The translations under genes and the position numbers were made by a program. DNA of 64,000 nucleotides. Source: Planctomycetota bacterium. Its GTDB lineage: Bacteria > Planctomycetota > PLA2 > JAEUHO01. Under the pieces are notes generated by a model. That model was not told where the DNA came from and did not search any database. It worked only from the letters and a program-made list of their open reading frames with translations. Shown here one piece after another: positions 27,291 through 62,680 of this stretch (position 1 is the first letter of the stretch; each line of letters opens with the position of its first letter). The DNA lies in contig CBDCWP010000044.1 in assembly GCA_965223505.1 (NCBI GenBank), positions 128,001-192,000 of the forward strand. Direction: 5' to 3'.

Positions 27291-28151
27291 ATGCGCAAGA
27301 ATGTCCTGTTGATGAGCGTCCTGGCGCTCGGAATGGTCCTGACCCTGAGTCCCGGGCTCGCCTGGGGGTGAGGCTGAGGCGCCGGCGGCGGAGGGGGCGG
27401 TCGCTCCCCGTCCATCGGACCCTCGCCCGTCGGGCCGGGCGGTAGCCCGACGACACCCGGTGGATCCCCCTCGGGGCGCGGACGCAGCGTCGGCGCGGCG
27501 CCGCGGCTGACCCACTTCAAGTGGGACGTCGTCGAGATCGGCCCCATGCGCGCGGTCACCGGCGAAGAGGACGAAGAAGCCATCACGCCCGAGAAGCACC
27601 TGCGCAAGGTGCTCGGCTTCGACAAGGCCAGCCGCTACGGCGACAAGCGCCCGACGCTCGTCTACTTCCACTGGCCCCACGAGGACGGCAAGGAAGGCAA
27701 GATCTCCGAGAAGACGTGCCGGATCCTCGACGACGAGGAAGCCGCGCGCTGGTCGCTGTTGTTCCGTTGCGTGCAGATCGACATGGGCACCTCCAAGGAG
27801 GAGTTCACCGAGCTGCTCGGCGCGAAGGACAAGCCGTCGTTCGCCATGATGGACGCCGAGGCCAACATCGTCTTCGAGTTCCCCGCCCACAAGAGCGCGC
27901 GCAAGGTCTCGCAGTCGCTCGAGCAGGGACTGAAGAAGTTCCCCGCGTACTACAAGAAGGTGAAGGCGGACCTGAAGCAGCAGACCAAGTGGATGGCGGA
28001 AGCCAAGAAGCTGCAGAAGGCGAAGAAGCACAAGGAAGCGCTCACCCTCATCGACAAGGTGCGCTTCTCGAACCTGCGGGTCGGCGACGAGTTCGACAAG
28101 GCGCAGGACGTCGGCCGCACGCTCGCCGCGAAGATCTCGCGCCAGAGCTAG
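27291..28151 (+). CDS. Candidate secreted selenoprotein: signal peptide, G-U-G-U-G, Gly/Pro/Ser linker, degenerate thioredoxin-like domain
   Basis: GGAG + ATG 27291 gives MRKNVLLMSVLALGMVLTLSPGLAWG, then TGA(27369)-GGC-TGA(27375). The frame stays open into ORF 27546..28151. A GGTC-loop hairpin follows. Confidence 0.7.
27387..27412 (+). promoter_or_regulatory. Candidate SECIS hairpin
   Basis: ggcg-(ga)-gggggc GGTC gctccc-cgtc; loop begins 21 nt after the second TGA and 27 nt after the first. Confidence 0.6.
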
Positions 28152-28173
28152 GGCTCTTCTCAAATCAGCACGC

Positions 28174-29307
28174 CTACCCCGTCAAGGGTAGGCGTAGCGC
28201 CAGCACGGCGCCCTCGTCCGTGGCCCGAACGGCGAGGTTGCCGCCGTGCCCCGCGGCGACCGCGTCGGCGAGCGCGAGCCCCGGGTAGGGCAGGCGCGTC
28301 TCTTCGTGGCTCCAGATGACCGTGCGGCGGTAGTCCGCCAGCTCGCGCTCGTTCAGCATCACGCCGCGGCCGCGAAGCGCTGCCTCGAGCAGGGGCCGGG
28401 ACGATCCGGGCGCGCGTTGCGGCGGCAACGTCCGGACCCGGCCCTCCACCTTCACCGGCGCGTCGCTCGACTGGGCGGCGAGGAAGGTGAGGGCGCTGCC
28501 GAACGCGCCGGTCACCTGTTCCGCGTCCACCGGCAACGGCGGGCCGTCTTCCGGCGGCAGGCCCGTCGTCTGTACCGTGCCGGCGTCGACGGCGGCGTCG
28601 AGCGAGCCGCGCAGCAGCGGGCCGAGCGAGGTCTCGGTCTTCTGCGGCGTCCCCAGGTAGCCGAAGTCGCCGAGGATGTCGACCACGTCGCGCACGCGTC
28701 GCACCTCCGCCTGTAGCTTGTCCCGGTGCGCCTGCGGCACGTCGCCCTCGCCGAGCAGGGACAGCACCTGAAGCGGGTTGTTGACCGCGTGGGAGACCTC
28801 CGAGGCGAGACGCGAGAGCGCTCCGGTGTCCGTCGCGGGCGCTGCCGCCGCGGGCGCGGGAACCAGCAACCGGCGCGCGACGAGCGTGAGCTCCTTGTCG
28901 TAGAACGGCAGGTGAACGTAGGCGTCGGCGCCCGCGGTGAGCGCGCGCAGGGCGGCCCGGCGCTCGCCCTCGGGCATCAGCAGCAGGATGCGCGTGTGTG
29001 GGGCGCGCTTGCGGACCGTCGAGACGAACCCCGCGTCGCGGCGGCGGAAGTTCTCGAGGGAGAGCACGACCAGGTCGCTCGGCTGCTCCACGAATCGCGC
29101 CGTGCCCTCGTACGGCTCGCGCGCTGCCCGCACCGTGCACCCGGCGCGCCGCAGCGCCCGCGCGGCGCTCTTGCGGCCGGGACCCTTGCCCATGACGAGC
29201 AGGGCCGTGTACGGCGTCTCCGACGAGGGCGAGGGGGTGGGAGCCAAGCGTGCATCCAGGCCGGACGGGTGGTGCGGACCCCGCCCATTCTTTGAATCGT
29301 CGCACAT
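28174..29307 (-). CDS. Receiver-like + degenerate histidine kinase protein; start uncertain
   Basis: Receiver-like region (ALTAGADAY), H-box SHAVNNPL, degenerate ATP-binding motifs (GLALA...HGG). Confidence 0.6.
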   Translation of the reverse strand: MCDDSKNGRGPHHPSGLDARLAPTPSPSSETPYTALLVMGKGPGRKSAARALRRAGCTVRAAREPYEGTARFVEQPSDLVVLSLENFRRRDAGFVSTVRKRAPHTRILLLMPEGERRAALRALTAGADAYVHLPFYDKELTLVARRLLVPAPAAAAPATDTGALSRLASEVSHAVNNPLQVLSLLGEGDVPQAHRDKLQAEVRRVRDVVDILGDFGYLGTPQKTETSLGPLLRGSLDAAVDAGTVQTTGLPPEDGPPLPVDAEQVTGAFGSALTFLAAQSSDAPVKVEGRVRTLPPQRAPGSSRPLLEAALRGRGVMLNERELADYRRTVIWSHEETRLPYPGLALADAVAAGHGGNLAVRATDEGAVLALRLPLTG

Positions 29308-29435
29308 GATGCGGCACTGAGGGGACTCTCCGGCCGCCGGATCGCCGGTTCCTTCGAACCGGACCGGACGGCTGGAAGCCGCAGCCCTACAATCCGCGGG
29401 CCCTTTTCGACGAACCCGCCCCGGGAGACCTGCCG

Positions 29436-30791
<1,356 letters not shown>

Positions 30792-30867
30792 GCGGGCGTC
30801 GCCCTGCCGGACCCGACCCGGGCTACCGCGGGACGTCTCCCGAGACGTCTCCCGCCTCCCGCGGCTC

Positions 30868-33045
30868 CTAGAACTCAGCCCCGAAAGCAACGACGATCTG
30901 CCGTCCGGGCTCGTTCTGCCCCGACCCGTGAATGCGGTAGTTCTCGTCGAACAGGTTCTCGACCCCCAGCGTCACGAACCGCCCCTCTCGAAGCAAGTAG
31001 CCGGCGCGGACGTTGAAGACGCTCCACGACGGCGTTCCCCCCGGAGGGATCCGGCGCGAGTCCGTCTCGTCGCGGAACGAGAGCTTGTCCGCCTTCGCCG
31101 AGTACAGCCACTCCGCCTGGCCCCACAACCGCGAAGTCGGACGCCCGTAGCGAACGGCCAGCGTGCTCGCGAACGGCATGTTGCGGCTGAGCGGGCGCTT
31201 CACGAGATTGCCGGCGGTGTCGAGCTGATCGACCTCGCTGTCCATCCACGTCGCGTTGGCGAACGCCATCCAACAGCAGTGGAATCGCCACGCGACCTCT
31301 GCCTCGAAGCCCCATGCGTACCCGTCGCCGATGTTGTCCTTGCGCACCTCCGGAACGCCCATGATCGACGCGCCGGTGGGGGAGCGAATGATCGCGTCGT
31401 CGAGCACCGTGTACCAGAGGGCCGTGTAGCCGCTGATCGCCGGGTAGTCCCACTTCACGCCGGCTTCGAACGACAGGTACTTCTCCGACGAGAGGCCCGG
31501 CGCCGGCGTCTCCACGACGCTCGTCGAGTCCAGCGCCGTCAGGTCGTGCAACGTCGGCGCACGGAACGCCTGGGACACCCCGCCGAAGACGTTCACCCGA
31601 CGGTTGATGTGATAGATCGCCCGCAGGCTCGCGACGAAGTCGGTCCAATCGTTCGAGACCGAGATGATGTTGCCCGGTGTTGCCGGGTCGTTGCCCGCCA
31701 CCGCCGGATCGTCGACGCGGTCCGCCGACGCTACGGCGTGGGTCAGGCGCCCGCCCAGGAAGACGTCGAGGAAGCCGAAGCTCATCTGGTCCTGCAGGTA
31801 GACGCCCAGCAGGTCGTACGTGCCGTCATCGCCGAGCGGCCCCTGGACGTGCGAGAGCGTCGGAACCCCGGCCACCAAGTCGTCCCGGAACGTTCGGACC
31901 TCGTCGTGATAGAACTCCGCGCCGTACGTGAGCCGGCCGAAGCGCGTCGGGCTCTCGAGCTGGACTTGGACGCCGTACTGATCGACCTCGAAACCGCTCA
32001 GATCGCGCCGGTCGCCCGTGCGTTCCCGGTCGCGTTCCTCCGCCTGCCGGTGCCAGCTGACGGCGATGTGACCGCGGGAGATCGGCCGGCAACACGCACC
32101 GCCGTCGAACGAGAGTCGCGCGTAGGCGAGGTCGCGCTCCTGATCGAAGTCCCGCTCGAGCTCCGATCCGACGGCCGTGCCCGCGAAGGGCACACTGAAG
32201 ACCGTGCGCTCCGTGCGCGGCGCGTCGAACTGGCGCACCCGCTGGTACGCGAAGGTCAACTCCCACGGCCGGGACAGCCGAATGTCGACGCGTGCATCCA
32301 TTGCCCAGTCGTCGATGTCTCCGGTCTCGGGCTGCCGGCCGGCCCCGCTGGTGATGTCGCCGAAGTGCTTGTACGTGACGCCCGCGGCCCAGCCGATGTT
32401 GTCGAGATTGCCTTCGACCTGCGAGCGGACCGCGACGGCGTTCTCGGCGGACGCGTACCGCGAGTAGACGGCGCCGCCGACGTGCAGGCCGCGGCGGAAC
32501 GAGGTGCGCCGCCACGGGATCACGTTCACCGTGCCGCCGACGGCGTCACTGCCGTACAACACGGAGTGGGGACCTCGTACGACCTCGAGGTCGGCGATCG
32601 AGTAGGGGTCGATCGTGCTCCAGTACTGATTCGGGCCGGCTCGGAACGCCGAGTTGTTGAGTCGGATGCCGTCGATGAGCATCAAGTTTTGGTAGGCGGT
32701 GAACCCGCGGATGAACGGTGAGCTCTGGTGGGGCGCGGTCTTCTGGACCATGACGCCCGGCAGCGCCTTGAGGGCATCGGGTAGGGAGCGCGGGGCGCGG
32801 CGTCGCAGGATCTCGTCCTGATCCAGGACGGTGACGGCGGCGGGGGTGTCGAAGACGCGCTCCGCGCGACGAAGCGTCGTCGTGCCGTATGCGACACCTG
32901 TGCCGTGGATCCGGGGCGCCACGACCTCGATGGGGGGCAGCGACTCGAGCGGCGGCGGCTCCGGCGCGTCCGGTTCGTCTTCGGCAAAGGCGCCGGACGC
33001 CGTCGCAGCGAGCCCCAGCACCACAGCGAACGCGAACCGCAACAC
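30868..33045 (-). CDS. TonB-dependent outer membrane receptor
   Basis: GGGAGG + GTG; signal peptide; plug motifs PGV, PFIRGF, IDGIRLN, EVVRGPHSVLYGSDAVGG; ENLFDENY; terminal Phe. Confidence 0.92.
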   Translation of the reverse strand: MLRFAFAVVLGLAATASGAFAEDEPDAPEPPPLESLPPIEVVAPRIHGTGVAYGTTTLRRAERVFDTPAAVTVLDQDEILRRRAPRSLPDALKALPGVMVQKTAPHQSSPFIRGFTAYQNLMLIDGIRLNNSAFRAGPNQYWSTIDPYSIADLEVVRGPHSVLYGSDAVGGTVNVIPWRRTSFRRGLHVGGAVYSRYASAENAVAVRSQVEGNLDNIGWAAGVTYKHFGDITSGAGRQPETGDIDDWAMDARVDIRLSRPWELTFAYQRVRQFDAPRTERTVFSVPFAGTAVGSELERDFDQERDLAYARLSFDGGACCRPISRGHIAVSWHRQAEERDRERTGDRRDLSGFEVDQYGVQVQLESPTRFGRLTYGAEFYHDEVRTFRDDLVAGVPTLSHVQGPLGDDGTYDLLGVYLQDQMSFGFLDVFLGGRLTHAVASADRVDDPAVAGNDPATPGNIISVSNDWTDFVASLRAIYHINRRVNVFGGVSQAFRAPTLHDLTALDSTSVVETPAPGLSSEKYLSFEAGVKWDYPAISGYTALWYTVLDDAIIRSPTGASIMGVPEVRKDNIGDGYAWGFEAEVAWRFHCCWMAFANATWMDSEVDQLDTAGNLVKRPLSRNMPFASTLAVRYGRPTSRLWGQAEWLYSAKADKLSFRDETDSRRIPPGGTPSWSVFNVRAGYLLREGRFVTLGVENLFDENYRIHGSGQNEPGRQIVVAFGAEF

Positions 33046-33148
33046 GGAGCCCTCCCACGCCTTCCCGTGAGGAACGACGATGGTGCCAGGGGGTTCGGCC
33101 AAAACAACGCGGAAAGCGACCGTATGCTGTCCACGGAGGCGCACTCGC

Positions 33149-33328
33149 ATGAACGACGAATACCGGGTCGAGCTCAAACCTCGGCAGTGGGCCTATCTCG
33201 AGGAGATGGCCGAGAAGCACGGGTTGCCGGACGTGTCGAAGGCGCTGCGTTGCCTGGTGAATTTCGCGGTGGAAGAGCCCGACCGCGAAGGCGACATCTT
33301 CCAGGAGATCCGCTGCAGCGACTGCTAG
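33149..33328 (+). CDS. Small hypothetical protein (ribbon-helix-helix-like, C-terminal CxxC)
   Basis: GGAGG + ATG; MNDEYRVELKPRQWAYLEEMAEKHGLPDVSKALRCLVNFA...IRCSDC*. Confidence 0.65.
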   Translation: MNDEYRVELKPRQWAYLEEMAEKHGLPDVSKALRCLVNFAVEEPDREGDIFQEIRCSDC

Positions 33329-33384
33329 CGGCGGTCCAGGGATCCGCGCCGTCGTCGAGCGGTCACCTTCTGCCTTCGATCGCC

Positions 33385-33425
33385 AAAAAACGAAAAAGAC
33401 CCCCGGCGACGAATCGCCGGGGGCC
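33385..33425 (-). terminator. Intrinsic terminator downstream of the thioredoxin-family gene
   Basis: Minus strand: cccccggcga-ttcg-tcgccggggg followed by tctttttcgtttttt. Confidence 0.85.
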
Positions 33426-33453
33426 TCGAAATGGTCAGGCGTGAACGAGGGGT

Positions 33454-34548
33454 CTACTTGCCGCCACCCATCCCGTCGTCGTCACCGCCGTCGTCGTCTT
33501 CGCCGTCATCCTCGTCGTCGTCGTCCTCGTCTTCTTCTTCGTCCTCGCCGCCCTTCTCGAGCTGCGCGGCGACGCCGTCGACGTAGGCCTGGGCCTGCGG
33601 ATTGTTCTTGTAGAGATCGTCCTGCTTGACGCGCTCGATCATCGCCTTGGCGTCGTCGATGCGCTCGCCCTTGGCAAGCCACTGCGCAACCGCCACGCCG
33701 ACACCGACGAACATACGGCCCGAGAGGTGCTTGCTGGCCATGAGCGCCTCGTGGATCTTCGCGAATTCTGCGTCCGTGGGCGGACGCTGTTCCTTCGGGA
33801 AGAGCGCCTTGAGCTTCTCTTCTTCCTCGACACGCAGGCGACGCTCACGCTCCGCCGCGACCTTCTCCTTCAAGCCCAACGAGCCGTCCGGATCCGCCTT
33901 GTCGGCGGCATCGAGAACCCAGTCGAACGCCGGGTAGCCCAGCAGGTTGTTGTCGGCGAGCACAGGGAAGGCGGCCTTGAGCGCCTCGAGGTCCTTGTGC
34001 TCCGTGTCCGCGATCAGCTTCTTGACCGCGGCGCCGCCCTCCTGCAGCTCGTCGAGATGCTTGAGGTAGGCCTCGGGGCCGCCCGCCTTGTAGCCGGTGC
34101 GCCCGTAGGGCGTGCCGTCGGCGGTCGTGACCATGATGGTCGGGTAGCCGGCGCAGCTGTATTCCTTGAACAAGCGGTCGCGAAGCTCGGGGTCGACGAC
34201 CGCCTTCTTGAGCTCTTCGCTGTTCGGTTTGTCCATGAACACGAAGACGAACTTCTTCGTCGCCGCATCCACGAACTCCTTGTGCATGAACACCTCTTTG
34301 TCGAGGCGAATGCACCAACCGCACCAGTCGCTGCCGGTGAAGTTGATCACGAGATCCTTGTTCTCGGCCTTCGCCTGGGCGGTGGCCTTGGTGAAGTCCA
34401 TGACCCAGGGAAGGTGGGCCTCTTCGGTCTCGGCTTCGCCCTCTTCTTCCTCGGCGAAAGCCAGGCTGCCGGTGGTGACGGGCAGCGCCAGCGCGGCGAG
34501 CAGCCCGAAGAGCACGGCCCAGCGTCCGCGCAGAAGGTGATGCGTCAT
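33454..34548 (-). CDS. Secreted thioredoxin-family protein with acidic tail
   Basis: Signal peptide; FTGSDWCGWC, GYPT cis-Pro motif, D/E-rich C-terminus. Confidence 0.88.
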   Translation of the reverse strand: MTHHLLRGRWAVLFGLLAALALPVTTGSLAFAEEEEGEAETEEAHLPWVMDFTKATAQAKAENKDLVINFTGSDWCGWCIRLDKEVFMHKEFVDAATKKFVFVFMDKPNSEELKKAVVDPELRDRLFKEYSCAGYPTIMVTTADGTPYGRTGYKAGGPEAYLKHLDELQEGGAAVKKLIADTEHKDLEALKAAFPVLADNNLLGYPAFDWVLDAADKADPDGSLGLKEKVAAERERRLRVEEEEKLKALFPKEQRPPTDAEFAKIHEALMASKHLSGRMFVGVGVAVAQWLAKGERIDDAKAMIERVKQDDLYKNNPQAQAYVDGVAAQLEKGGEDEEEDEDDDDEDDGEDDDGGDDDGMGGGK

Positions 34549-34731
34549 GATTGCTCCTTGGATGTGAATGCGGCTCCCCGAGCCAATCGAAGGACGCCGG
34601 GGGGTTGGCCGATGTTTCCCTGCTCTCGCGGGGCCGCGAGGGGGCAGGGGCCTCGGTCCTTTTCCGCTGAAGCCCACGATATCCTCGGACCGGCCAACGG
34701 ACGAAACGCGCTTCGAAGAATCAGCGCGCCC

Positions 34732-34998
34732 TCAGAACGTCCGCGACAGCAGCCAGAGGAGCGCGGCGCCGCCGACCCCTACGATCAGGGAGCCCGGCGC
34801 CCCGAAGAGAACGTAGCCGCCGACGACCGCGGCCATCCAGACGGCGCTCGCCACGACCTGGACGGCGCGCCAGAACGGATCGCGCAGTCCTGGGACCGGG
34901 GTGGCCTTCCCACAGCCCGGGCAGTTGACGTAGCCCCCCGTCAGGTGTGCTTCGACGGTGAAGAAGTGTCCGCACGAACAACGGACCGGCACCGCCAC
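34732..34998 (-). CDS. Small zinc-ribbon membrane protein
   Basis: CSCG...CPGCG followed by two TM segments. Confidence 0.7.
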   Translation of the reverse strand: MAVPVRCSCGHFFTVEAHLTGGYVNCPGCGKATPVPGLRDPFWRAVQVVASAVWMAAVVGGYVLFGAPGSLIVGVGGAALLWLLSRTF

Positions 34999-35005
34999 CG
35001 GCCCG

Positions 35006-35584
35006 TCAGTTCTGCCGGCCTTCGATGGCCGCGATCAAGACGGCGGCACCCCAGACGAGCCGCCGGTCGATCGTGCATGCCGGCCGGATCGAGACGTCGA
35101 GCTTGTGCACGAACGGGTTGAAGCGCTGGCTCAGCACCGCGAGCTCGTTGCCGCCCTCGTCCTTCAGGTGAAACGTCTGTGGAATGAGGTTCGTGAGAAA
35201 GCGGCGCAGGAACGCGAGGCCGCCGCTGTCTTCCTCCAGCTTCGCCACCGGGACGTCGTTCTCGTCCAGCAGCTCCCACGCGTCACGCAAGATCGACTTG
35301 AACCCCTTGCGGCGCGCCGCGCCGACCTTGGTTCCCGCCTGCGCATCGATGATGTCGTACGCCGCGGAGAAGTCGATGATCTGCCGCGCGTGAATGGTCA
35401 AGAGCTCTTGCGTTGCCGACTCGTCGGCATAGAGCCGAATGTCCTCCTTGAGCTTGAACGCCTTCTGCTTGCTGAAGCCGACGACGTTGCCGTCGGGATC
35501 GTAGACGTGAAAACTCGCGCCGAAGACCTTGAGGAACTTGCGGCGAATCATGAACTCCGACAGCTCGAAGGGACTGGACGTCAC
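35006..35584 (-). CDS. LURP-one/scramblase-like protein
   Basis: KQKAFKLKEDIRLY, IHARQIIDFSAAYD, RRKGFKSILRDAW, AAIEGRQ. Confidence 0.75.
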   Translation of the reverse strand: MTSSPFELSEFMIRRKFLKVFGASFHVYDPDGNVVGFSKQKAFKLKEDIRLYADESATQELLTIHARQIIDFSAAYDIIDAQAGTKVGAARRKGFKSILRDAWELLDENDVPVAKLEEDSGGLAFLRRFLTNLIPQTFHLKDEGGNELAVLSQRFNPFVHKLDVSIRPACTIDRRLVWGAAVLIAAIEGRQN

Positions 35585-35664
35585 GATGGCACTCCGTTGA
35601 CCGGCAACACTGTAATTCCGATCCTCGCACGGATCACGTGTCGCACGTCGAGTTCGATTCGGCG

Positions 35665-49114: not shown

Positions 49115-50203
49115 ATGCGCATCGCCGCGACCCTTTCTCTCGCAGCCGCCCTCGCCTTCCTGCCGGGAAGCGTGACGGCCGACGAGGAGCACCGCATCGA
49201 CAACATGTCGATGGGCACCTACTGGTACGGCGCCAAGATCGAAAAGGAGGACCTCGTCGGAACGGTGGTGCTGCTCGAGATCTGGGGGTCGTGAGTAGGC
49301 TGCAAGGCGATCACGCCTCACTTGGTCAGTTTGGCCAAGCGTCTCGAAGACCGGCCCTTCCACCTCATCGCGTCCCACTGTCAGAACAACCCGAAGTCGG
49401 AGGTCGTGGCGTACATCAAGAAGCAAGGCGTCGCCGCTGACGCGCCGAACTTCACGGTCACGAGCCAGGCGCGGCACCCCGACGTCCAGGGCAACGGCCA
49501 CGTGCCGTACTACATCGTGTTCGACCACCGCGGGAAGCTGGTCCATCACCACATGTGCGGCGCCTACCACGGCGGGGACGGGCTCAAGATGATCGAGTGG
49601 GTCGATCAACTGCTCGAGGACGCGCCGGACCTGTACCTCGGCGAAGAGCCCTTCGAGCACGTCCCCGACCTCGCGGAGCGCATCGCGTTCAAGAAGGGCT
49701 TCGCGAAGGCCGTCGCCGAGGTGGAAGCCGGACTCGAGGACGAGAGCGTGGATGCCGGCAAGAAACAGGAGCTGCAGCGGCTCGCGGACGCCGTTCGCGC
49801 GTACTACGTCGCCGGCGAGAAGCGCGCGGACCGCGTTGCGGCGAGCAAGCCCAATCAGCTCGTGGCGCTGCTCAAGGAACAACGCAAGGAGCTCAAGGGC
49901 ACGAAGCTCGGCGCGAAGCTCGACGAGAAGATCGCCGAGGCGTCGAAGTCCAAGCACCTCAAGGCCGCGATCGCCGTGCAGAAGAAGTTGGACAAGATCC
50001 TGCGCGGGCTCGAGAAGCGCAAGCCGTGCAAGACGTGCAAGCGCGCGGGGCACGAGGGCGTCAATCTCGACTGCCCCGCTTGCCGCAAGGACAACGCGAG
50101 CGCGATCGAGAAGGCGGTCGAGAAGCTCGAGAAGCTCGCCGAGGAAGCGGACGGCCTGCCCATCGCGCAGGCCGTTCAGGACGCGCTTGCCGGCGTGAAG
50201 TAG
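49115..50203 (+). CDS. Secreted TlpA/redoxin-like selenoprotein (UVGC) with C-terminal CxxC..CxxC
   Basis: ORFs 49091..49294 and 49322..50203 are in frame; read-through gives GTVVLLEIWGS-U-VGC-KAITPHL. Later HVPYYIVFDHRGK and CKTC...CPAC. Confidence 0.85.
49305..49339 (+). promoter_or_regulatory. Candidate SECIS hairpin(s)
   Basis: cttggtca-GTT-tggccaag (49321-49339, loop 34 nt after TGA); alternative aggcg-atca-cgcct (49305-49318). Confidence 0.45.
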
Positions 50204-52948: not shown

Positions 52949-52980
52949 CTTCTTCTCGCTTTCTCGCCGACGGCCGGGCG

Positions 52981-54045
52981 CTACTTCCCGGTGAGGCGCT
53001 TCTTCACGTAGTCGAACAGCGTGTCGTACGCCGCGGCGGCGTCCTTGTCTTCCTTGTCCTTTGCGACCATCTTGCCGGCCTTCGAGAGCCACTCGATCTT
53101 GCCTTCCCAGTCGACGAGGATCGTCGGGCTCTCGACGCCCTTGGGGTAGCCCATCTTGCGAACCGCCGCCAGCAGCTCGCCGTCGGCGTCGATCATCAAC
53201 GGGCCCTTCCACTTGAGCGCCTTGGCCGCCTCCGCGACCTTGGCCTCGTCGACGGCTTCGCCTTCCTTCGACGGCCGGACCGCGATAATCAGGTTGAACT
53301 TCTTCGACTTGTACTTCTTGTGCAGCTTGATCATGGACTCGAGCGTCGCCGTGTCGTCCTCGGAGTCGATGCACCACCAGCGCACGGCGGTGATCGCGAA
53401 CTTGGAAAAGACGCGGTCCTTGCTCTTCTTGTCCAGCCACTTCGTGTCGTCTGGGATCTCCGGGAACGGCTGCTTGAGCATGCCGACGCCGTCCGCGGCG
53501 TCTTGCGCGAGCTTGTCGATCAACGTGACGAGCTTGTCGTGCTCGATCAGGAAGTCGTTGGCGCGCACGACACCCTGCGGGTCGATGACGATCATCCACG
53601 GCGTGCCCTGCGTCTTGTAGCGCTCGAGGACGTTGGAGCGTTTGCCGTCCGTGCCCGGGTCGTGGCCGACCGGGATCTTCAGCTCGAACTTGTCCGCGAC
53701 GGCCTTCGCGGCTTCGGCGGTGTTGGTCTCGAACCCCTCGAAGACCGTCTGGATCGTGACGAATTGAACGGCTTCGTTGCCCTTGTAGTGCTCGATCAGC
53801 TTCTGCAGCGCGGGGAACCCCCGCGAGTGGCAGCCGGGTCACCACGACTGATAGTTGTAGAGCATGAGAACGCGGCCGCGGAAGTCGCTGATCTCGAGCT
53901 TCTGCTTCCCGTCCGGAAGGTTGAACCACTTGTCGATGTCCCACTTCGGCGCATCGTTACCTTCGATGCCCTTGCCGAACGCGTCCTCGCTCGTCACGGG
54001 CATGAGGAGGAAGATGGCCAGTGCGGCCAGCGCCAGAACTCTCAT
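52981..54045 (-). CDS. Secreted peroxiredoxin/redoxin-like selenoprotein (UPGC) with a second degenerate Trx domain
   Basis: ORFs 53839..54045 and 52981..53595 are in frame; read-through gives GRVLMLYNYQSW-U-PGCHSRGFP...IQTVFEGF...GTPWMIVIDPQG. Confidence 0.9.
53809..53825 (-). promoter_or_regulatory. Candidate SECIS hairpin
   Basis: cgcgggg-GTT-ccccgcg; loop 20 nt after TGA (53841-53839). Confidence 0.65.
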
Positions 54046-54110: not shown

Positions 54111-55427
54111 CTATCGCATCTGTTCCCAGAGGGGGGCGCCTACGTACACATTGTCCCAGGGGGGCACCCTCAGCGCGTCCTCCTTCCGCTCGACGTCGCT
54201 GTCGCGAAGGTGCAGCGTCTGGATGCCGTCGACGTTCTGGAATCGCGCGATGTCGGCACGCGTGGCGTAGGACCCCATGTACGTGTGGTTGATGCCGTTC
54301 ATCGCGAAGTTCGATGCCGGATGGAGGAAGCGGCCCTTCACGTAGATGTGGTTGATTCCGTTCACCTCGAAGGTCCCCGCGACGTCCACGTCGACGACGA
54401 CGGTACTCTGCCCCTGGAGCTTCACGCGCCCGTTCAAGTTGCCCATGACCCGCAGGCGTCCCATCCCTGGGACGACCACGGTGCCGTCGAGGTCCCCTTC
54501 GACGAGGATGATGCCGCTGCTGGCCTCCACCACGGCGCCGGCCGCGACGTCCCCGCGCACGAACACCCCCAAGCCCGGCCCCTTGATGTTCGTTCGGAGC
54601 GTCCCCTCGACGATGAGCTGCGCCGGTCGCTTGAACTCGAGATCTGAGGTCGGCGGCGAGACGGCCATGACGTGGCTCTGCACCGTACCGCCGCGCACGG
54701 GAATCGAACCCGGAGCGGTCAGGAGTCCGGTGATGCGCTCGATCTCGTCGGCGCCGACGACGTTGCCCTGGACGGTGTCGGGAATGCGCAGCTTGCCGCC
54801 GCCCTCCGTCGACGGCACGGACGCGTAGCGAAGCGTCACCGTGCGCCGAAGCGCCTGGGCGTCCTGGCTCGTCGCAATCACCGCGACCTTGTAGACGGTG
54901 CCCGTTGCCGACCGCGCGAACACGAGCCCGAAGTAGCGGTCGTGCACGGGCTTGGTGGGGGAGAGCTCGAAGGTGGCAGGTTCGAACGTCGCCGGCGCGT
55001 CCACCGCGTAGCCGAAGCACTCGGCGCCCGTCGGAACGTCCTCACGCGTGAGCAGCGGCAACACCGCGCGCGCGGCCCCGTTCGGAAACGCGAGCGTCGT
55101 CAACGTCCGGATGTCCAGGCAGGCGACGTCCGCCGCGCCGCCGTCTTGCCGCGCATGTTCCTCGCCGAACACGTAGTCCTCGCCGATGCGCAGCACGGCG
55201 GTGCCGGGCGCGAACGGCTCGCTGGATTTGTCCGTGCCGCGGAGCTTCGGCGCGCGGGGAGACGCCTCGAGCATCTCGCGCGGGACGTCCGAGGAAGACG
55301 CAGCCGGACCGGCCGCGCTCGTTCCGGCGGGCTCGGTACGGGGGCCGGGCCGCTCTGGCTTCCAGAGCAACCAGGCACCCGCCGCCAGCAAGACGCCGAC
55401 AACGATGCCGGCCACGAATCGTCGCAC
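54111..55427 (-). CDS. Membrane-anchored hypothetical protein with C-terminal beta-helix-like repeats
   Basis: N-terminal TM; repeated (I/V)xVxGxLxG units (IVEGTL, FVRGDV, LVEGDLDG, RVMGNLNG). Confidence 0.55.
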   Translation of the reverse strand: MRRFVAGIVVGVLLAAGAWLLWKPERPGPRTEPAGTSAAGPAASSSDVPREMLEASPRAPKLRGTDKSSEPFAPGTAVLRIGEDYVFGEEHARQDGGAADVACLDIRTLTTLAFPNGAARAVLPLLTREDVPTGAECFGYAVDAPATFEPATFELSPTKPVHDRYFGLVFARSATGTVYKVAVIATSQDAQALRRTVTLRYASVPSTEGGGKLRIPDTVQGNVVGADEIERITGLLTAPGSIPVRGGTVQSHVMAVSPPTSDLEFKRPAQLIVEGTLRTNIKGPGLGVFVRGDVAAGAVVEASSGIILVEGDLDGTVVVPGMGRLRVMGNLNGRVKLQGQSTVVVDVDVAGTFEVNGINHIYVKGRFLHPASNFAMNGINHTYMGSYATRADIARFQNVDGIQTLHLRDSDVERKEDALRVPPWDNVYVGAPLWEQMR

Positions 55428-55507
55428 GTTGCCTCCGCTCCCAGTGACGCATCGCGACGTCTGGATCTTCCCGCCCACCTTCAGCGTGGATCGTACGATG
55501 GGCGCGT

Positions 55508-56209
55508 ATGAACTACCTCTCGCACGCCCGCAATCACCTCGGCCGGCCCTATGCGCTGGCCGGAACGGGCGCGCCCGACTGGATGCGCGTCTCCGACCGA
55601 CGGGCGCGCGTCGTCGTCGAAGACCTGCCCCTTCCCACCCGTGACGACGACTCCGACGAGGCGGAGCTGATCCGTGGGATGCACCGGCACTTCGTCGACG
55701 ACAAGTGGTTTCATCAAACCAAGGTGTTTCGCGGGCTGATGCGAACGATGCGCGACCGCCTGCGCGAACGGCACGGGTATCCGCGCGGACTGCGCCCGGT
55801 CTTCCGTGCGCACATCCTGATCGAGGTGTTGCTCGATGCGCACCTCATCCAGCAAAGGCCCGACGTCGTCGACCGCTACTACGACGAGCTCGGCGCCGTC
55901 GATCCGGAGCTCGTCGCGACCACGATCAACACCCACGCGACCCGACCCAACAACGGCCTCGCCGCGTTCATTCGGGGATACCGGACCTATCAGTTCCTGC
56001 GTTCCTACGTGGATGACGCGGAGGTCGTGAAGCGACTCGACCAGGTGGGCGGCCGTGTCGGCCTGCCGCGGCTCCCGCGCGGCTTCGTCGACGACGTCAC
56101 GTGGGCCCGACGTCTGGTGTCCCGCAACGCGGAGGCGCTGCTCGAACCGCCCCCGCACGTCACGGCCGACCTACAATGGCGTCATGACCCGCGAACGACT
56201 GACGCGTAG
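55508..56209 (+). CDS. ACP phosphodiesterase (AcpH)-like HD-type protein
   Basis: MNYLSHA, PD, GMHRHFVDDKWFH, HILIEVLLD. Confidence 0.6.
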   Translation: MNYLSHARNHLGRPYALAGTGAPDWMRVSDRRARVVVEDLPLPTRDDDSDEAELIRGMHRHFVDDKWFHQTKVFRGLMRTMRDRLRERHGYPRGLRPVFRAHILIEVLLDAHLIQQRPDVVDRYYDELGAVDPELVATTINTHATRPNNGLAAFIRGYRTYQFLRSYVDDAEVVKRLDQVGGRVGLPRLPRGFVDDVTWARRLVSRNAEALLEPPPHVTADLQWRHDPRTTDA

Positions 56210-57065
56210 GACCGTACTCAAGGGCGCGGCCGCGGCCGCCGCGCTCGGCGCCGTCGCGCCGGACGCGCTCGCCGAAGAGCCGAAAGCGCGAACGATCGAG
56301 CGCGCGCCCGCGGGCTTCGTCGGGCACGGTTCGCCGATGCTCGCCCTCGACGCCAAGAAGGGCGGTGAGCTCTCGAAGTGGACCGCCGCATTCTCGAAGC
56401 CGGTGGCCGTACTCGTCGTCTCCGCGCACTTCCAGAAGTCGCCGATCACCGTCGGCGCAGTGACCAAGCGGCCGTTGGTCTACGACTTCTCGAACTTCCC
56501 CAAGCGTCTGTATCGGCTGACCTACGATGCGCCGCCTGCGCCCAAGCTCGGGAAGCGAGTCGCCGACGTGTTGAAGCCACTCGGCGCCGTGCGCTCCGAT
56601 CCCCGTCGCGGCCACGATCACGGCACGTGGGTGCCCCTGCGCTGGATGTACGCGGACGCGGACGTACCCGTGCTCTCTCTCTCCCTTCCGTCGCACGATC
56701 CGAAGCAGCTGTGGCGGATCGGACGCGCGCTGCGCCCGTTGCGTGACGAAGGCGTGTTCGTCCTCGGCAGCGGCAACGTGACGCACAATCTGCGCAAGCT
56801 CGGTCGCGCGGGAAGCAAGACCCCCGCGTGGGCGGCGGACTTCGATGCCTGGTGCGAGCAGCGTCTCGTTCGCAACGACAAGGACGCCTTGTTGGACTGG
56901 CAGCGCAAGGCGCCGGCAGCACGCACGAACCATCCGACGGTCGAGCACTTCGTCCCGTTGCTCATCGCCGCGGGCGCCCGCTACGAGGGCGAACGCGCGA
57001 CGTTTCCCGTCGAGGGATTCGAGGCGGCGAGTGTCTCCCGCCGGTGCGTGCAGTTCGGCGCGTAG
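56184..57065 (+). CDS. DODA/YgiD-type class III extradiol dioxygenase with Tat signal
   Basis: TRRTVLKG signal; GHGSPM, SAH, YDFSNFP, DHGTW, GSGNVTHNL, HPTVEHFVPL. Confidence 0.88.
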   Translation: MTRERLTRRTVLKGAAAAAALGAVAPDALAEEPKARTIERAPAGFVGHGSPMLALDAKKGGELSKWTAAFSKPVAVLVVSAHFQKSPITVGAVTKRPLVYDFSNFPKRLYRLTYDAPPAPKLGKRVADVLKPLGAVRSDPRRGHDHGTWVPLRWMYADADVPVLSLSLPSHDPKQLWRIGRALRPLRDEGVFVLGSGNVTHNLRKLGRAGSKTPAWAADFDAWCEQRLVRNDKDALLDWQRKAPAARTNHPTVEHFVPLLIAAGARYEGERATFPVEGFEAASVSRRCVQFGA

Positions 57066-57185
57066 TGGAGCGCGACGATCGACCGAACCGCCACTGACAA
57101 CGCACAGACGTTTTGACCGCTTCGATGTGTTTTGGTCCAATCCCGGCTACTCGGGTCGTGAGACCCCATGGGTGGGAGGTGCTAG

Positions 57186-57675
57186 GTGGCCAGCTTCATC
57201 GACTTTCGCTACTTGAAGAAGAAGGGATCGATGCCCGGTCCCAACAAGGTCAAGGTCCAGGCGCAGAAGGTGCATGATCCCAATGTGGGTGGTGTCCAGA
57301 ACATCGATGTGGCCCAGAGCGGCAACATCGTCGAAGTTCACTCGCCGGAGCAGACGAGCTGGGCCGACGGCGTGGTGTGGGTCAAGGGCGGCGGCACGAC
57401 CGTGTGGGGCAACTGTCCGAACTGGAACCGCCTCGTGGTGCGGGTCATGAGCGCCGCCGGACAGGACGTCGGCGCGTTCGTCATCAGTCGCGACATGGCG
57501 CACCCCAACGCGGAACGCGCGTCGCTGTGCATCCTCGACGGGGGGACGGAGGCCTACACGATCGCTTCGACCACTGGCACGCCGAGCGCAGGACGTCCGG
57601 CAGGCGCCGGTCGAAGCGGGCACGTTTGTGGATCCGCCCAACATGTCTTCGAAGTTCATCCAGAAGCAGCAATAG
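57186..57675 (+). CDS. Small beta-rich hypothetical protein; frameshift near 57585 falsely fuses it to the next gene
   Basis: GGAGG + GTG. A shifted frame gives AQDVRQAPVEAGTFVDPPNMSSKFIQKQQ and TAG at 57673-57675. Confidence 0.5.
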
Positions 57676-57701
57676 GGCCGCGCGGGCGGCGTGGGGAAAC
57701 A

Positions 57702-60699
57702 GTGAGAACGCGGCGAGGCTGCTCGGTCCTGCTCTTGCTTTGGATCGTGTCGACGCCGTGGGCCGCGCCGCTGCGTGCCGACGACGAGGCGGCGCCGGCG
57801 CTGAGCACCATGGCTGCGGAGGTGCTCGCGGCCGCGAAGAAGTCGGACACGGACGCGCTCGCCAAGCTCGTCGAGAACGGGGACTTCGATCCGTGGCAGA
57901 TCGCGCACGAGCTGCTCGTCCACCGGCAAGGCGACGCGGCGTGGGCTTATTGCAACGCGACGAAACGTCCCGATCTCGAGCCGCTCACGCGGTACGTCCG
58001 CACCCACCGCCGCAAGCTGCTGTCGGTCGCGACGTGGAAGCACGTGCTGCGTCTCTCCGAGCTGAGCGGCGAGGAAAAGTGGTTCGACATGCTCGCGTAC
58101 ATCGACGAGCAGCGCGTCGACGTCGCGTCCGAAACCGTCGGCGTCGCGCGCGTTCTCTACTACCGGGGTTGGGCGCAATACCACCTCGAGAAGCCCGCGG
58201 ACGCGTCCCGGACCTGGTGGCGCGCCGGCGAGATCGCCACCGCCCTCGGCTGGCACGCCGGCGAGTGCGAGTCGCTGCGGCTGACGTTCAACGCGGCGCA
58301 GGACGCGTTCGACTTCCAGCTCGTCGTTCGGAGCCAGAAGGCGCTTGCGGAGTTGTTTGCCCGTATCGGTGATCGCCACCAAGCCGCCGCCGAGATCATC
58401 GATCTCGGAAGTGTCTACGGACAGATGGGCGACTATCACAGCGCGCTCTCGAACTACGAGTCGGCGCTGCGCAGCTACCAAGACGTCTTGTCGCCCTCGG
58501 TGCGAGCCCAGACGCTCGACAACGCCGCGTTGGCGTGCCTGCGGTTGGGTGACTACGCGCAGGCGAGGGGGTACGCCACGGATGCGCTCGCCGCCGCGCC
58601 CGAGGCGTCGCAGATCCAGACCGGCTTTCCCACGATCACGCTGGCGTTGATCGACACCGAGATCGGCGCGTACGACGACGCCCGCGCGCATCTCGATGCC
58701 GCCAGATCGATGTTCGAGAGCATGCCCGTGCCGCAAACCAATCCGGAGGAGGCCGCTTACTACGAACGCCTGAAGACCAAGGCGCTCGCGCAGGTGCAGG
58801 CCAGCCTCGGCGAGGTCGATCTGCTCGAGGCGAAGTACGAGGCGGCGCTGGCCAACATGCAGAAGGCGCTCGCGATCTTCGAGGAGCTCGAGGAGGAGCG
58901 CTTCGTCGTTCGGGCGCGCGGCACGATCGCAGTCATCACGGGCCGCATGGGCGATCGGCGCAAGGCGCTTCGCGAGCTCCAGGCCCGTGCGCGAAACGCA
59001 AGAGCGCATTCGCGACCGCGAGGGGCTGTGCGGTACGCTCGGCGAGATCGCGGAGCTGCAGCGCGCCGCCCAGAAGCCGCAGCTCGCGCTCTCGACACGC
59101 ACGGAGCAGCTCGCCGTCGCCGTCGACATGGGCTCGCTCGGCTTCGAAGCGGAGGCGTTGGCCCAGCTCGCCAAGCTGTATGTCGACCGCGGCGACTACG
59201 CGAAGGCGCTCGACCACGCCGACCGCTCGATCCAGCAGCTGCGACTCGCGTTCGACTCGCTCCCGCCGCGCCAGGCGGCGCTGGCCCGGCATCGAACCGC
59301 CGACGCGTCCGCCGTCGGCCTGGCGGCGTCGCTCGGGCTCGCCGCTGAGGACCCCGCGGCCCTCGCGGCGGTCTGCCGCCATCTCGAGGCGGAACGCTCC
59401 GCCGTGCTGCTCACGCAGGTGGAAGGACGGCGCGCGATCGGTCGGGCGAAAGTGAGCCCCGAGCTGCTCGAGCGCCAGGACGAGGCGCGCGCGGCCGAGG
59501 CGATCGCGCGCGCGGAGCTCCAGGCGGCGCACGAGAACGGCAACCTGCAGAAGCAACGCGACGCCCGCGCGCGCATGGAAGCCGAGCAGTCGAAGCGCAT
59601 CAAGGCGATCGACAGCATCCATCTCGAGCGCGGTCTCGCGGCGGACCTGCTCTACCCCGAACCAGCCGCGATCGAAGCGATCCAAGGAGCCCTGCGACCC
59701 GACGAAGCCATGGTGCTGTACGGAACGAACGCAGGCGAGACGATCGCGCTCGTGTTGACCACGACGCGTCGCGAGCTTCGCGAGTTGGGGCCGTGGGATG
59801 CCGTCGCGGCAGCGTGCGCCAAGGCCGCCGAAGATCCGAAGCACCCCGAACAGACGCAGCGCTTCGAAGCGCTGGGCAAGCTCCTCGCGACGCCGCTGAA
59901 GCTCGACACGTCGATCCGGCGCGTGCTGGTGTCGCCCAAGGGTATGCTCTCGTATCAGCCCTTTTCGATGCTCTTCCAGGACCGCGAGGTCACACACGTC
60001 TCGTCCGGCACCATCTATGCGCATCTCAACAAGCGCACGCCCATCGAATCCGGCGACGTGCTGGCCTTCGGCGACCCCGACTACGCGAAGTCGGAGAAGG
60101 GCACCACCGTCGTGTCGGAATACCGCGGTCGAAGACTTCGTTCCTTGCCCGGTTCCGCCGAAGAGGCGCGGCGTGTCGGCACCGTCGTACGCCTGCGAGG
60201 CGAGGCCAACGAAACGCGCGTGCGCGCCGACATCGCGAAACACGCGCCGCTACGCGGGCTGCACTTCGCGGCACATGGGCTGGTCGACGAACACCGACTC
60301 AGCCGGTCCGCCGTGGCGCTGACCCCGACGGAGGGCGAGGACGGCCGGCTCTTCGCATACGAGCTCAACCTCATGGACGTGGCGGCGGATCTGGTGGTCG
60401 TTTCCGCGTGCGCATCGGGCCGCGCGGGATTCGCGCAGGCCGAGGGCATCGTCGGACTGACCATGGCGTTCTTCGTGGCCGGTGCCCGGCGCGTGATCGT
60501 CAGCTCGTGGTCCGTCGACGACGAGGCCACGCGCGAGCTGATGATCAAGTTCCACGAGCTTTGGAATCACGAGAACCCGGAAGAGCGGCTGAGCGCGGGC
60601 GCGGCGCTCAAGGCCGCGCAGGAACACGTCAAGGCGCAGCCGAAGTGGTCCCACCCGCAGTTCTGGGGCGCCTGGCAGCTGTGGGGGCCGGCCGACTGA
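57702..60699 (+). CDS. TPR + CHAT (caspase-like) protease; frameshift near 58985
   Basis: Signal-peptide-like start, TPR repeats, CHAT motifs AFGDPDY, LPGSAEEA, LHFAAHG (His), VVSACASG (Cys), SSWSVDD, HPQFWGAW. Confidence 0.88.
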
Positions 60700-60708
60700 C
60701 GCCGCGCT

Positions 60709-61074
60709 TCAACGCGGGCTCAACGGAAGAGCGCGCGAATCTCCGCGCTCGTCGCGACTCACCACGGCCTTGCCGTTGCGCAGGATGACCGGGCGCCGCA
60801 ACAAGTTCGGCTCCTTCAGCGCCGCCGCCTTGAAGGCGGACTTCGAAGGCGGCTTGTCCTTCCAGCCGTTCTCCTTCGCGACCCTGTGCCGGGTGTTCAT
60901 CACGTCCTCGACGCTCGCGCCCTTCAGGATCGCGTCGAGTTCGCGCCGCGTCAGCGACTCCTTGGCGTAGTTGCGTTCGACGACGTCGGGGTCGAGCTCG
61001 CGCACGAGACCGCGCGCGGGACGGCAATCGCTTCAGGTGCTCTTCCAGAAGAAGATCGTCTCGGGGTTCGGCAT
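60709..61074 (-). CDS. ArsC/Spx-family selenoprotein (USDC); possible frameshift near the 3' end
   Basis: ATG 61074: MPNPETIFFWKST-U-SDC-RPARGL..., in frame with ORF 60709..61005 (ERNYAKESL, EPNLLRRPV). Confidence 0.85.
60999..61018 (-). promoter_or_regulatory. Candidate SECIS hairpin
   Basis: cgcgcgcg-GTCT-cgtgcgcg; loop 22 nt after TGA (61035-61033). Confidence 0.65.
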
Positions 61075-61084
61075 GCGCGGGAGT

Positions 61085-62680
61085 CTACTCGCGGTCTTTC
61101 GTCGCGCGTACGCGAAGTTCCAGGGTCAGCGCGCGGCCGTCGGCGAGGTTCCCGGCGGAGAGCCGTCTCGGTTCGTCGAAACCGACGACGACGTCGGCCC
61201 GAACGGTCGGACGGGCGAGCACCGGCAGGTCGACCGCGCCGTCGGGCAGGATGCGCGTCGAGACGTCGGTCTGCTGCAGCTCGGACGTGAGCTCCACGAC
61301 GACCTGCTTGCCGCCCGGCGCGATGCGCGCCAGCGCCGTGGTGAGCCATCCGTCGAAGTAGACGCCCATCCAGGGCGCCGAGATGGTCATGCCTCAGGCA
61401 ACCTCCGCGTCGACGTCGCGCAGAAATCTCCGATCGATGCCGATGCGCGCCGACGCCGGCCGTCCGTCCAGTGCCGGCAGGCGAACCGAGGCGATGCGTT
61501 CACTGCCCGCGCGCAGCTCCAGCTCGATGACGACCGCCGTCGCCGTGCTGCGGCCCAGCTCGGCGATGAGGTCACGCACGGCGCGCTGATCCGCCAACGA
61601 TGCGCCGACGAAGAGCCTGCCGTTCGCATCGAGCGCGAACTTGGCGCGCGGCGCCCGGCTCACGAGCGTCTCGGCCACGAACGCGGGCGCTGCGAGGGGC
61701 GCCATGAATGCGACGCCCGGGCGCATCAGCTGGGGGTCGTGGTCTCCCTCCTCGGGTCGGGGAAGGGCGAACCACGAGTCCAGTGCGAAGAACGACAGGT
61801 CGTAGCAGCGCAGCGTCCCGCGTTTCCCGGTCGCAGGCTGCGGCCCCGTGCGGCGGGGCGTCAGGCGAACCGTGTACGTGTCGTCACCGAGCGCCACGCG
61901 GCTCTCGATGGTCTCGTTCGGCATCGCGCGGCCCGAGACGCATGCAAGCGCGCCGCGGTACGCGGTCCGGTCGAACGTTCCGAGTCGGTGGATGTGCGTC
62001 GTTTCCACGCGCGCCGGCGCGAATGCGCCCGTCTGACAGATCGCCTCGAGGGCGATCCGGCCGCCGGGTTCGATGTCATAGGCGCGCACGTCGACCGAGA
62101 CGCCGTCGAACACGCGCGCGACCACCGGATTTCCCATGGCCGACGGCATGTTGCCGTCGCCGGCGATCTCGACGCCGTAGTCCGCAACGACGTCGCGCCC
62201 GGTCACGCGCTGGAAGTTGCCGCGGCCGCCCGTTGCGACCTGGATCTGTCCAGTGGTGCGCGTGCCGTCGGCGCGAATCACCTCGACGTCGACCTCGATG
62301 CGCCGCGCGACGTCGACGGCCAGCCGGGCGAGCTCGGTGCGCCGATCGCTCGCCGCGGCGCCCGGGACGTAGAACACCTCGTCGCCGAGGGCGAGGATGC
62401 GCTCCGCGCCCAGCACTTCCTCCAGCCAGGGAAGGACCGAGTCGAACTCCGCGCGAATCTCGTCGGTTTCGTTCCACGCTCGGGTCTCCTCGATCGCCCC
62501 GAGCAGGTACAGATCGTCGTGTGCGATGAGACCGAGCACCGGCCCCTGCACCTGCTGCGGGTCGCGGCGGAAGCTCTCGATTCGTACGAGCGCGCGCGGT
62601 TCTACGCCCGCATCCTCTGCGAAGGCCATGGCGGAGAGCGCGAACGACGCCGCGAACGCAAGGAGAAGCATCGAGCGCAC
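61085..62680 (-). CDS. Secreted secretin-like repeat protein with an in-frame TGA at 61396-61394
   Basis: ORFs 61394..62680 and 61085..61390 are in frame (…DAEVA-TGA-G-M-TISAPW…). The read-through segment aligns without gaps to DVEVAQDARIGDP...FEGW of the upstream paralog. Confidence 0.6.

Follow-up and report, generated by a model that had tools for sequence, protein, structure and literature searches.

The window analysed here, a 64-kb stretch of DNA (G000:C44:128001-192000), lies on contig C44 of G000, a metagenome-assembled genome (MAG) of an uncultured member of the Planctomycetota. It contains five genes, named c1 to c5, whose coding sequences are crossed by in-frame TGA codons and which become five continuous frames when TGA is read as selenocysteine (Sec, written U). 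These genes, the hairpins that follow their TGA codons and the Sec decoding to which both point are the subject of this report. The window has a GC content of about 69% and an even composition, and planctomycete-specific PSD/PSCyt domains are found directly beyond its edge.

Five genes with in-frame TGA codons

The features of the five genes are given below, with the putative selenocysteine insertion sequence (SECIS) hairpins written as stem arm, loop and stem arm; all five stems are perfect.

27291..28151, + strand: c1, exported protein of 286 amino acids (aa) with signal peptide, U27-G-U29-G, tether, thioredoxin fold and helical domain
27369..27377, + strand: the two Sec codons of c1, TGA GGC TGA, 6 nucleotides (nt) apart, from the translation
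27393..27408, + strand: SECIS hairpin of c1, GGGGGC-GGTC-GCTCCC
49115..50203, + strand: c2, exported redoxin-like protein of 362 aa with motif EIWGS-U-VGC and a K/E-rich helical C-terminus
49292..49294, + strand: Sec codon of c2, an in-frame TGA
49321..49339, + strand: SECIS hairpin of c2, CTTGGTCA-GTT-TGGCCAAG
52981..54045, - strand: c3, exported AhpC/TSA-redoxin of 354 aa with U69 in the motif QSW-U-PGC
53839..53841, - strand: Sec codon of c3, an in-frame TGA
53809..53825, - strand: SECIS hairpin of c3, CGCGGGG-GTT-CCCCGCG
60709..61074, - strand: c4, cytoplasmic ArsC/Spx-family protein of 121 aa with U14 in the motif KST-U-SDC, starting 10 nt downstream of c5
61033..61035, - strand: Sec codon of c4, an in-frame TGA
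60999..61018, - strand: SECIS hairpin of c4, CGCGCGCG-GTCT-CGTGCGCG
61085..62680, - strand: c5, exported, secretin-like protein (531 aa) containing two internal repeats, with U429 in the motif AEVA-U-GMT
61394..61396, - strand: Sec codon of c5, an in-frame TGA
61361..61379, - strand: SECIS hairpin of c5, GGCGCCC-TGGAT-GGGCGTC
62684..64000, - strand: c5 paralog that lacks Sec (Gln occupies the column), in tandem immediately upstream of c5 and running past the window end

The six in-frame TGAs begin at 27369 and 27375 on the forward strand, at 49292 on the same strand, and at 53841, 61035 and 61396 on the reverse strand, which is where a sequence-only reading of the window had placed them. Every TGA has a hairpin 3' of it, the loops being GGTC, GTT, GTT, GTCT and TGGAT in c1 to c5, respectively. 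Counted from the T of the TGA, the c1 loop begins at +31 relative to the first codon and at +25 relative to the second, and the loops of c2 to c5 begin at +38, +24, +26 and +25; from the end of the codon the distances are 21, 34, 20, 22 and 21 nt. Four of the five loops (c1-c4) contain GT, and four of the five products have signal-peptide-like N-termini. Loops, distances and signal peptides alike agree with the earlier reading, the distances to the nucleotide. Codon-usage coding scores are positive over long ranges on either side of the TGAs.

The frequency of such hairpins was compared with three control sets using a single detector, which required a stem of 6 bp or longer and a 3-7-nt loop beginning at +16 to +40. 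All six candidate TGAs are followed by a hairpin and five of the six by one with a GT loop. At the true TGA stops of long coding open reading frames (ORFs) the corresponding counts are 87/624 (13.9%) and 15/624 (2.4%); they are 911/5535 and 174/5535 (3.1%) at TGC sense codons, and 1411/8000 and 247/8000 (3.1%) at out-of-frame intragenic TGAs. The hairpins, which the sequence-only reading had allowed might be just as common after true stops, are thus far above chance.

Conservation of the TGA codons was examined by searching each product in six frames against 40 species genomes of the same order. In the resulting alignments all six UGA columns are conserved in orthologs, and the TGAs coincide inside strongly conserved motifs. 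Matches to c1 occur in 19 of the 40 genomes; among 20 match rows two TGAs are present in 11 (own included), one in 7 and none in 2, and both TGA-free rows are N-terminally partial. Of 12 aligned rows, c1 itself among them, 10 show the UGUG column; another reads GGCUG and the last begins after the motif. For c2, with matches in 24 genomes, each of the 17 close matches from other genomes carries a single TGA, and the codon is aligned in 12/12 rows. The homologs of c3 comprise four with TGA, one of which has a second, distal TGA, and three with Cys at the same column (WCPEC/WCPGC). One TGA is present in each of the 16 other match rows of c4 (15 genomes) and in all five full-length homologs of c5 (12 genomes; 31-36% identity), where the motif is D.D.EVG-U-S.xIADP. 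Cys takes the place of Sec in the c3 relatives, in solved Spx for c4, and in two relatives of c5 (P0013 and P0014), while at the Sec column of c1 the only Cys-type case is a C-U variant (L035).

The hairpins themselves are retained to differing degrees. In c1 the GGUC loop is invariant over 11 loci, five stem pairs have no broken cell and two show compensatory changes. In c2 seven pairs are unbroken in 12 sequences, the loop being GUU, GGU or GGUCU and the outer pair having switched from UA to CG in five of the 12. The c5 hairpin recurs in all six loci (its own and those of five homologs), with some cells broken. The c4 homologs (L059-L068) have GU-loop hairpins of their own in two registers, with a GTCT/CGTGTT loop at about +25 or a GTC loop at about +30, and thus offer no alignable consensus; this suggests that the SECIS element has been turned over within the c4 family.

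The G000 assembly (5.15 Mb, 44 contigs, 92.5% complete, 1.7% contaminated) encodes the whole apparatus needed for Sec insertion. ARAGORN places a tRNA-Sec with anticodon TCA at C43:10939-11037, and profile searches find SelB on C41 (335.7 bits), SelA on C8 (507.2 bits) and SelD, also on C8 (338.1 bits), the last with one in-frame TGA of its own. The 64-kb window contains none of the sel genes and no tRNAs; the former had already been remarked from the sequence, along with the proviso that a near-complete genome should hold tRNA-Sec and SelB, and both are present. Across the order, SelB exceeds its curated cut-off in 39 of the 40 species genomes. As a separate observation on codon use, the stops of confidently coding ORFs in the window are TAG in 29 of 43, TGA in 13 and TAA in one; a preponderance of TAG is unusual at 69% GC and may reflect avoidance of TGA under heavy Sec decoding.

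Decoding of the TGA codons

It is highly probable that c1 to c5 are bona fide bacterial selenoprotein genes of the Planctomycetota, and that they form part of a mostly exported, genome-wide selenoproteome of at least 25 genes. Sec recoding of all five, as proposed from the sequence, is upheld by the conserved TGA columns, by hairpins in excess of chance and by the presence of the machinery. Each in-frame UGA would be decoded as Sec by SelB and Sec-tRNA(Sec), with SelB recruited by a canonical bacterial SECIS (bSECIS) hairpin that has G-U in its apical loop and lies 20-34 nt 3' of the codon within the coding sequence. In c1, given the position of the loop relative to both codons, one hairpin would direct Sec insertion at the two UGAs, 6 nt apart.

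The TGAs could instead be ordinary stops, in which case the genes would be pseudogenes, adjacent pairs of ORFs or assembly errors, and the hairpins by-products of a GC-rich sequence. Long spurious ORFs and hairpins are indeed common at 69% GC, where a hairpin of at least 6 bp follows 13.9-17.6% of control positions, and 16 of 21 extra read-through candidates in the genome proved each to be two same-frame neighbouring genes and were dropped from the count. However, between 5 and 17 orthologs, 30-60% identical, keep the TGAs of c1 to c5 in one alignment column, a Pfam domain extends across the TGA in both c2 and c3, Cys occupies the Sec column in relatives of c3, c4 and c5, and GT-loop hairpins are enriched about 30-fold over true stops. 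We consider this explanation extremely improbable. Nor do we give any real credence to the suggestion that TGA encodes a standard amino acid (Trp, Gly or Cys), whether genome-wide or by means of a suppressor tRNA. Although reassignment of TGA is known in some uncultured lineages, TGA otherwise serves as a normal stop in G000, terminating 661 long, confidently coding ORFs; the genome has the TCA-anticodon tRNA-Sec with complete selA, selB and selD; and the in-frame TGAs stand at redox-Cys positions with SelB-type hairpins 3' of them.

A further question is whether Sec decoding here relies on a SECIS class of its own, as the sequence-only reading proposed in suggesting a lineage-specific consensus. 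Nothing essential separates these hairpins from the bSECIS model or from the hairpin of E. coli fdhF, the loop of which is GGUC as in c1; the c1 element is particular in being one hairpin for two UGAs. According to PMC13188914, the apical loop of a bSECIS element measures 3-9 nt, its stem 4-16 bp and the distance from UGA to loop 16-37 nt; G stands at loop position 1 or 2 and the next nucleotide is usually G or U. All five hairpins, which lie inside the ORF with loops of 3-5 nt, G at position 1 or 2, stems of 6-8 bp and spacings of 20-34 nt, satisfy every one of the limits quoted there on loop, stem, G position and spacing. Their shared geometry is thus that of an ordinary SelB-binding hairpin, and the claim of a lineage-specific consensus does not hold. 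That the Sec reading is right and the hairpins nonetheless constitute a planctomycete-specific class is an unlikely alternative. It could draw on the dominance of GGTC, GTC and GTT loops among the Sec genes of G000 and on the absence of any SECIS family from the Rfam matches in the region (six weak unrelated matches for 27000-62000 at E <= 10). Besides the agreement with the published constraints, it is opposed by the variation in spacing, by stems that have no sequence in common between families and by a hairpin register that shifts even within the c4 family.

The encoded proteins

In c1 the U-G-U of the local motif LAWG-U-G-U-G comes directly after the predicted signal-peptide cleavage site, followed by a disordered Gly/Pro/Ser tether of about 40 residues and then by a thioredoxin fold in which the usual CxxC position reads HWPHED. 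In an AlphaFold2 (AF2) model with a predicted local distance difference test score (pLDDT) of 80.9, residues 1-68 are disordered (pLDDT <50) and the rest forms the thioredoxin fold and a helical domain. The best structural matches are E. coli YbbN (3qou; probability 1.00, query-based TM-score (TMq) 0.29) and thioredoxins. The order of secondary-structure elements in the predicted structure, in a protein with no sequence-family match (none in Pfam or NCBIfam), agrees with the thioredoxin fold and helical domain of CnoX/YbbN.

On the basis of this model c1 looks like an exported YbbN/CnoX-like thioredoxin-fold protein bearing U-G-U at its predicted mature N-terminus on a flexible tether. As modelled, it resembles YbbN/CnoX in combining a thioredoxin fold lacking CxxC with a helical domain, but differs in being exported and in having its tail at the N-terminus, with U-G-U at its head. 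Animal thioredoxin reductase has a GCUG tail, and c1 is similar to it in carrying redox-active residues on a flexible terminal tail. The U-G-U of c1 may act as a mobile diselenide redox arm. Two Sec residues close together are also found in the UxxU metal-binding protein NF041115, which is named in PMC13188914.

Of 401 genomes sampled from the phylum, 24 have a member of the c1 family, in which TGA occurs once or twice. A protein collection holds 52 relatives in addition to the window's own record, all of 195-259 aa and covering 65-86% of the query, which indicates that they were called from a start 3' of the TGAs and are N-truncated. No Pfam domain is found in them, every stated taxon is Planctomycetota, and the name on record is 'hypothetical protein' for all but one, a JGI entry ('predicted RNase H-like HicB family nuclease'). 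G000 also has a c1 paralog (L110, G000:C30:299671-300588), in which the signal peptide is followed by A-G-U-C-GGGGS and a hairpin with the GGTC loop again lies at +31.

The second protein of particular interest, c5, was modelled by AF2 as two repeats of an alpha-beta module with long hairpins (pLDDT 78, predicted TM-score (pTM) 0.80). In the model Sec429 lies in the turn between strands 408-428 and 431-453, and all 15 Foldseek matches at E <= 1e-3 are secretins. A homologous-protein search with the c5 sequence returned only its own truncated record, a 428-aa N-terminal fragment, and relatives were obtained from a search with a profile of the c5 family, which gave 1332 proteins at E <= 1e-3. 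Among the best 150 of these, at least 11 terminate at profile position 407, immediately before Sec, and at least seven are short C-terminal pieces starting just past it, the pattern expected from fragmentation at the TGA. The suspicion that gene callers break up such genes is thus borne out for c5 as for c1. The Pfam Secretin domain (PF00263, cut-off 27.5 bits) was detected in three of 19 c5 relatives, P0113 (42.9 bits), P0149 (36.6) and P0041 (16.7). The Sec column of 20 aligned family members holds Gln in 13, Cys in two, Sec in two, and Glu, Thr and Asn in one each. The Gln-type tandem paralog is 29% identical to c5 (VEVAQDARIGDP), and the same tandem order is found in G001 and G026.

From its predicted fold c5 looks like an outer-membrane protein of secretin-like type in which Sec sits on a beta-hairpin tip, where it may be a redox- or metal-reactive site on the pore. 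Features that recall secretins (GspD, PulD, PilQ, InvG, pIV; PF00263) are a predicted fold for which the top 15 matches are all secretins, the signal peptide and the long beta-hairpins, and its relatives P0113 and P0149 pass the Pfam cut-off. It differs from them in having a duplicated module and in its setting, as no type II or type III secretion system (T2SS, T3SS) or pilus genes occur within about 15 kb. An outer-membrane beta-barrel selenoprotein provides a precedent for the location of c5; its fold and motif, to judge from the description, are unrelated.

Several points tell against the interpretation given here. Incorporation of selenium at these UGAs would follow from the genes, from which it is deduced. 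The MAG is 92.5% complete and in 44 contigs, and its sel genes are on contigs other than that of the window. The heuristic used to predict export is crude, and 38.5% of background genes are flagged by it as well. RNAalifold returned no consensus hairpin for the c4 family, and the loop of c5, UGGAU, lacks GU. The sequence of c5 itself has no Pfam match, and its fold matches to secretins are low (TM-scores 0.17-0.28). At the equivalent tip of the first c5 repeat the five Sec-type homologs have Cys and the G000 copy has Gly, which weakens a simple model of Cys-Sec pairing for that copy.

The remaining proteins belong to kinds already known. c3 and, probably, c2 are exported TlpA/redoxin-type UxxC thiol-disulfide oxidoreductases, and both fall within the 'thiol-disulfide isomerase-like' UxxC kind listed in PMC13188914. 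Like known UxxC redoxin/AhpC-TSA selenoproteins they are exported, carry Sec for the first Cys of CxxC and have a SECIS shortly 3'; they differ in their long C-terminal extensions, which are K/E-rich or form a second domain. The redoxin Pfam match of c2 spans the TGA and scores 23.2 bits, below the cut-off of 26.6. An alignment-based locus search with the c2 family gave 19 loci, all in Planctomycetota MAGs, and c2 alone as the query gave none. c3 passes Pfam AhpC-TSA (56.6 against a cut-off of 26 bits), the domain spanning U69, and scores 20.7 bits against the NCBIfam model WAxxUGC_long, which has a cut-off of 300. Between c1 and c2 the window also holds a TGA-free, Thioredoxin_7/DsbH-like protein of 407 aa (33454-34677, - strand), which belongs to the same class of exported redox proteins but is of the Cys type.

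c4, a cytoplasmic UxxC protein of ArsC/Spx-like type, passes Pfam ArsC (37.9 against a cut-off of 24 bits) and falls below the NCBIfam cut-offs for arsC (TIGR00014; 40.5 against 106.05) and Spx (NF002459; 38.6 against 123). U14 aligns with the first Cys of CxxC in solved Spx. Arsenate reductase-type selenoproteins are named in PMC13188914 as TIGR00014 (UxxS) and NF041106 (UxxC), the latter being absent from the NCBIfam matches of c4 at E <= 0.01. c4 thus shares the ArsC-family fold with arsenate reductase(-like) selenoproteins and Spx, and has its UxxC at the Spx CxxC, but fails the arsC and Spx cut-offs.

The selenoproteome of the genome and the order

The rest of G000 was scanned for TGAs flanked by coding sequence, using run-length scoring followed by Pfam; a 50-codon filter had missed c1, c2, c4 and c5. 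This gave 19 further genes with a Pfam domain spanning the TGA, including DsbD, a deiodinase-like protein with EF-hands, DUF3179, two CMD/AhpD-like proteins, FG-GAP, many redoxin/Thioredoxin_7 proteins, two UxxU redoxins and a WD40 protein with UxxU. Together with c1 to c5 and SelD they bring the well-supported Sec genes to 25, and about a dozen more are probable. One candidate, L122, looks spurious and was dropped from the count. Signal-peptide-like N-termini occur in 20 of 24 well-supported and 8 of 12 probable Sec proteins, against 901 of 2340 background genes by the same crude heuristic, in keeping with the envelope focus suggested from the window alone.

A number of these genes merit description in their own right. 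L89 (C11:5262-7667) is a DsbD with Sec in its C-terminal thioredoxin domain, L91 (C24:62473-63720) a Sec-containing deiodinase-like lipoprotein fused to EF-hands, and L108 (C12:91304-92389) a DUF3179 protein with TY-U-VIC. L118 (G000:C7:820-1935) and L120 (G000:C21:457996-459276) are exported thioredoxin-fold proteins, each with two Sec in a UxxU site (DPG-U-DT-U-HN and FR-U-EP-U-KDC, respectively) and a Pfam domain spanning both TGAs. L121 (G000:C30:182703-183719), a WD40 beta-propeller with a signal-peptide-like N-terminus, has GKG-U-GP-U-VAS inside a WD40 repeat, a fold unusual for Sec.

Others are less clear. L119 (G000:C21:116145-117140) is a candidate for adjacent Sec-Sec (GGAT-UU-SS), to which coding potential and a 9-bp hairpin with a GGTCG loop point and which has no Pfam match; L98 (G000:C39:7682-8830), again with no Pfam match, is a candidate from its coding potential with TG-C-U-G near the C-terminus. 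L117 (G000:C44:234029-234791) is a GNAT acetyltransferase frame that continues past one TGA into a short hydrophobic segment ending PP-U-G-U-K, where there is a 7-bp hairpin with a GTC loop. The frame may not encode a single protein, as the segment could belong to a separate small membrane selenoprotein encoded 3' of the GNAT gene. A CxxCH haem-binding frame (L105/L133, G000:C21:433632-434864) passes through two far-apart TGAs, TETS-U-TGT and RYG-U-GGA, the second with an 8-bp GGT-loop hairpin 3' of it, and may represent a two-Sec cytochrome-like protein.

The density of Sec genes in the window is high relative to the genome. About 38 genes in 5.15 Mb predict some 0.25 Sec genes in 34 kb, where five are observed, and C44 carries four more beyond the window. 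An operon or island was considered as the cause and rejected: the composition is even, the neighbours are functionally unrelated and only c5 and c4, 10 nt apart, are adjacent. This suggests a loose regional enrichment.

Published surveys give a scale against which to set these numbers. PMC5029168 defines selenoprotein-rich as six or more genes. PMC13188914 tabulates more than 110 selenoprotein families and gives 57-63 genes for the largest bacterial selenoproteomes, mostly of anaerobes, and the visible rows of the top-10 table in PMC13326102 (BSepDB) span 54-63. The selenoproteome of G000 is thus large, as the sequence-only reading expected, but well below the published maxima. In PMC13188914 and PMC5029168 the bacteria described as rich in selenoproteins are for the most part anaerobes, and their Sec enzymes are located largely in the cytoplasm. 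Planctomycetes go unmentioned in the main texts of PMC13188914, PMC13326102, PMC12013277 and PMC5029168, although supplements or BSepDB entries may hold these genes. A full-text literature search for Planctomycetota selenoproteins or selenoproteomes gave no paper relevant by its title, and one for a secretin selenoprotein found none among the titles listed; one planctomycete study in the literature reports six candidate selenoproteins in one strain. The terms 'secretin', 'UxU' and 'UGU' are absent from the main text of PMC13188914, and c1 and c5, matching no family named in the main text of the 2026 review, look like selenoprotein types that are apparently unlisted there.

The mechanism is ordinary bacterial Sec recoding; what stands out is a Sec-rich planctomycete order, the export bias of its selenoproteins and the contexts of Sec in c1 and c5. 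It is conceivable, though we regard it as rather doubtful, that the order runs an extracytoplasmic selenium redox system with two undescribed parts, a Sec-tipped secretin-like pore and an exported thioredoxin-fold protein with a tethered U-G-U diselenide. If so, assembly of c5 into a multimer would arrange selenols in a ring, which could gate passing cargo or act on it chemically, and the U-G-U of c1 would imply that a single SECIS routinely serves two UGAs separated by 6 nt.

With SelB in nearly all of its genomes, the order as a whole carries dozens of Sec genes, mostly for exported proteins. Standard annotation truncates these genes, so that functional inventories of such MAGs are systematically wrong at redox active sites. 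The tethered U-G-U pair of c1 and the outer-membrane secretin-like hairpin tip of c5 would provide two new contexts for Sec, the chemistry of which may be as proposed above, and genes of the c1 type offer natural cases of the decoding of closely spaced UGAs.

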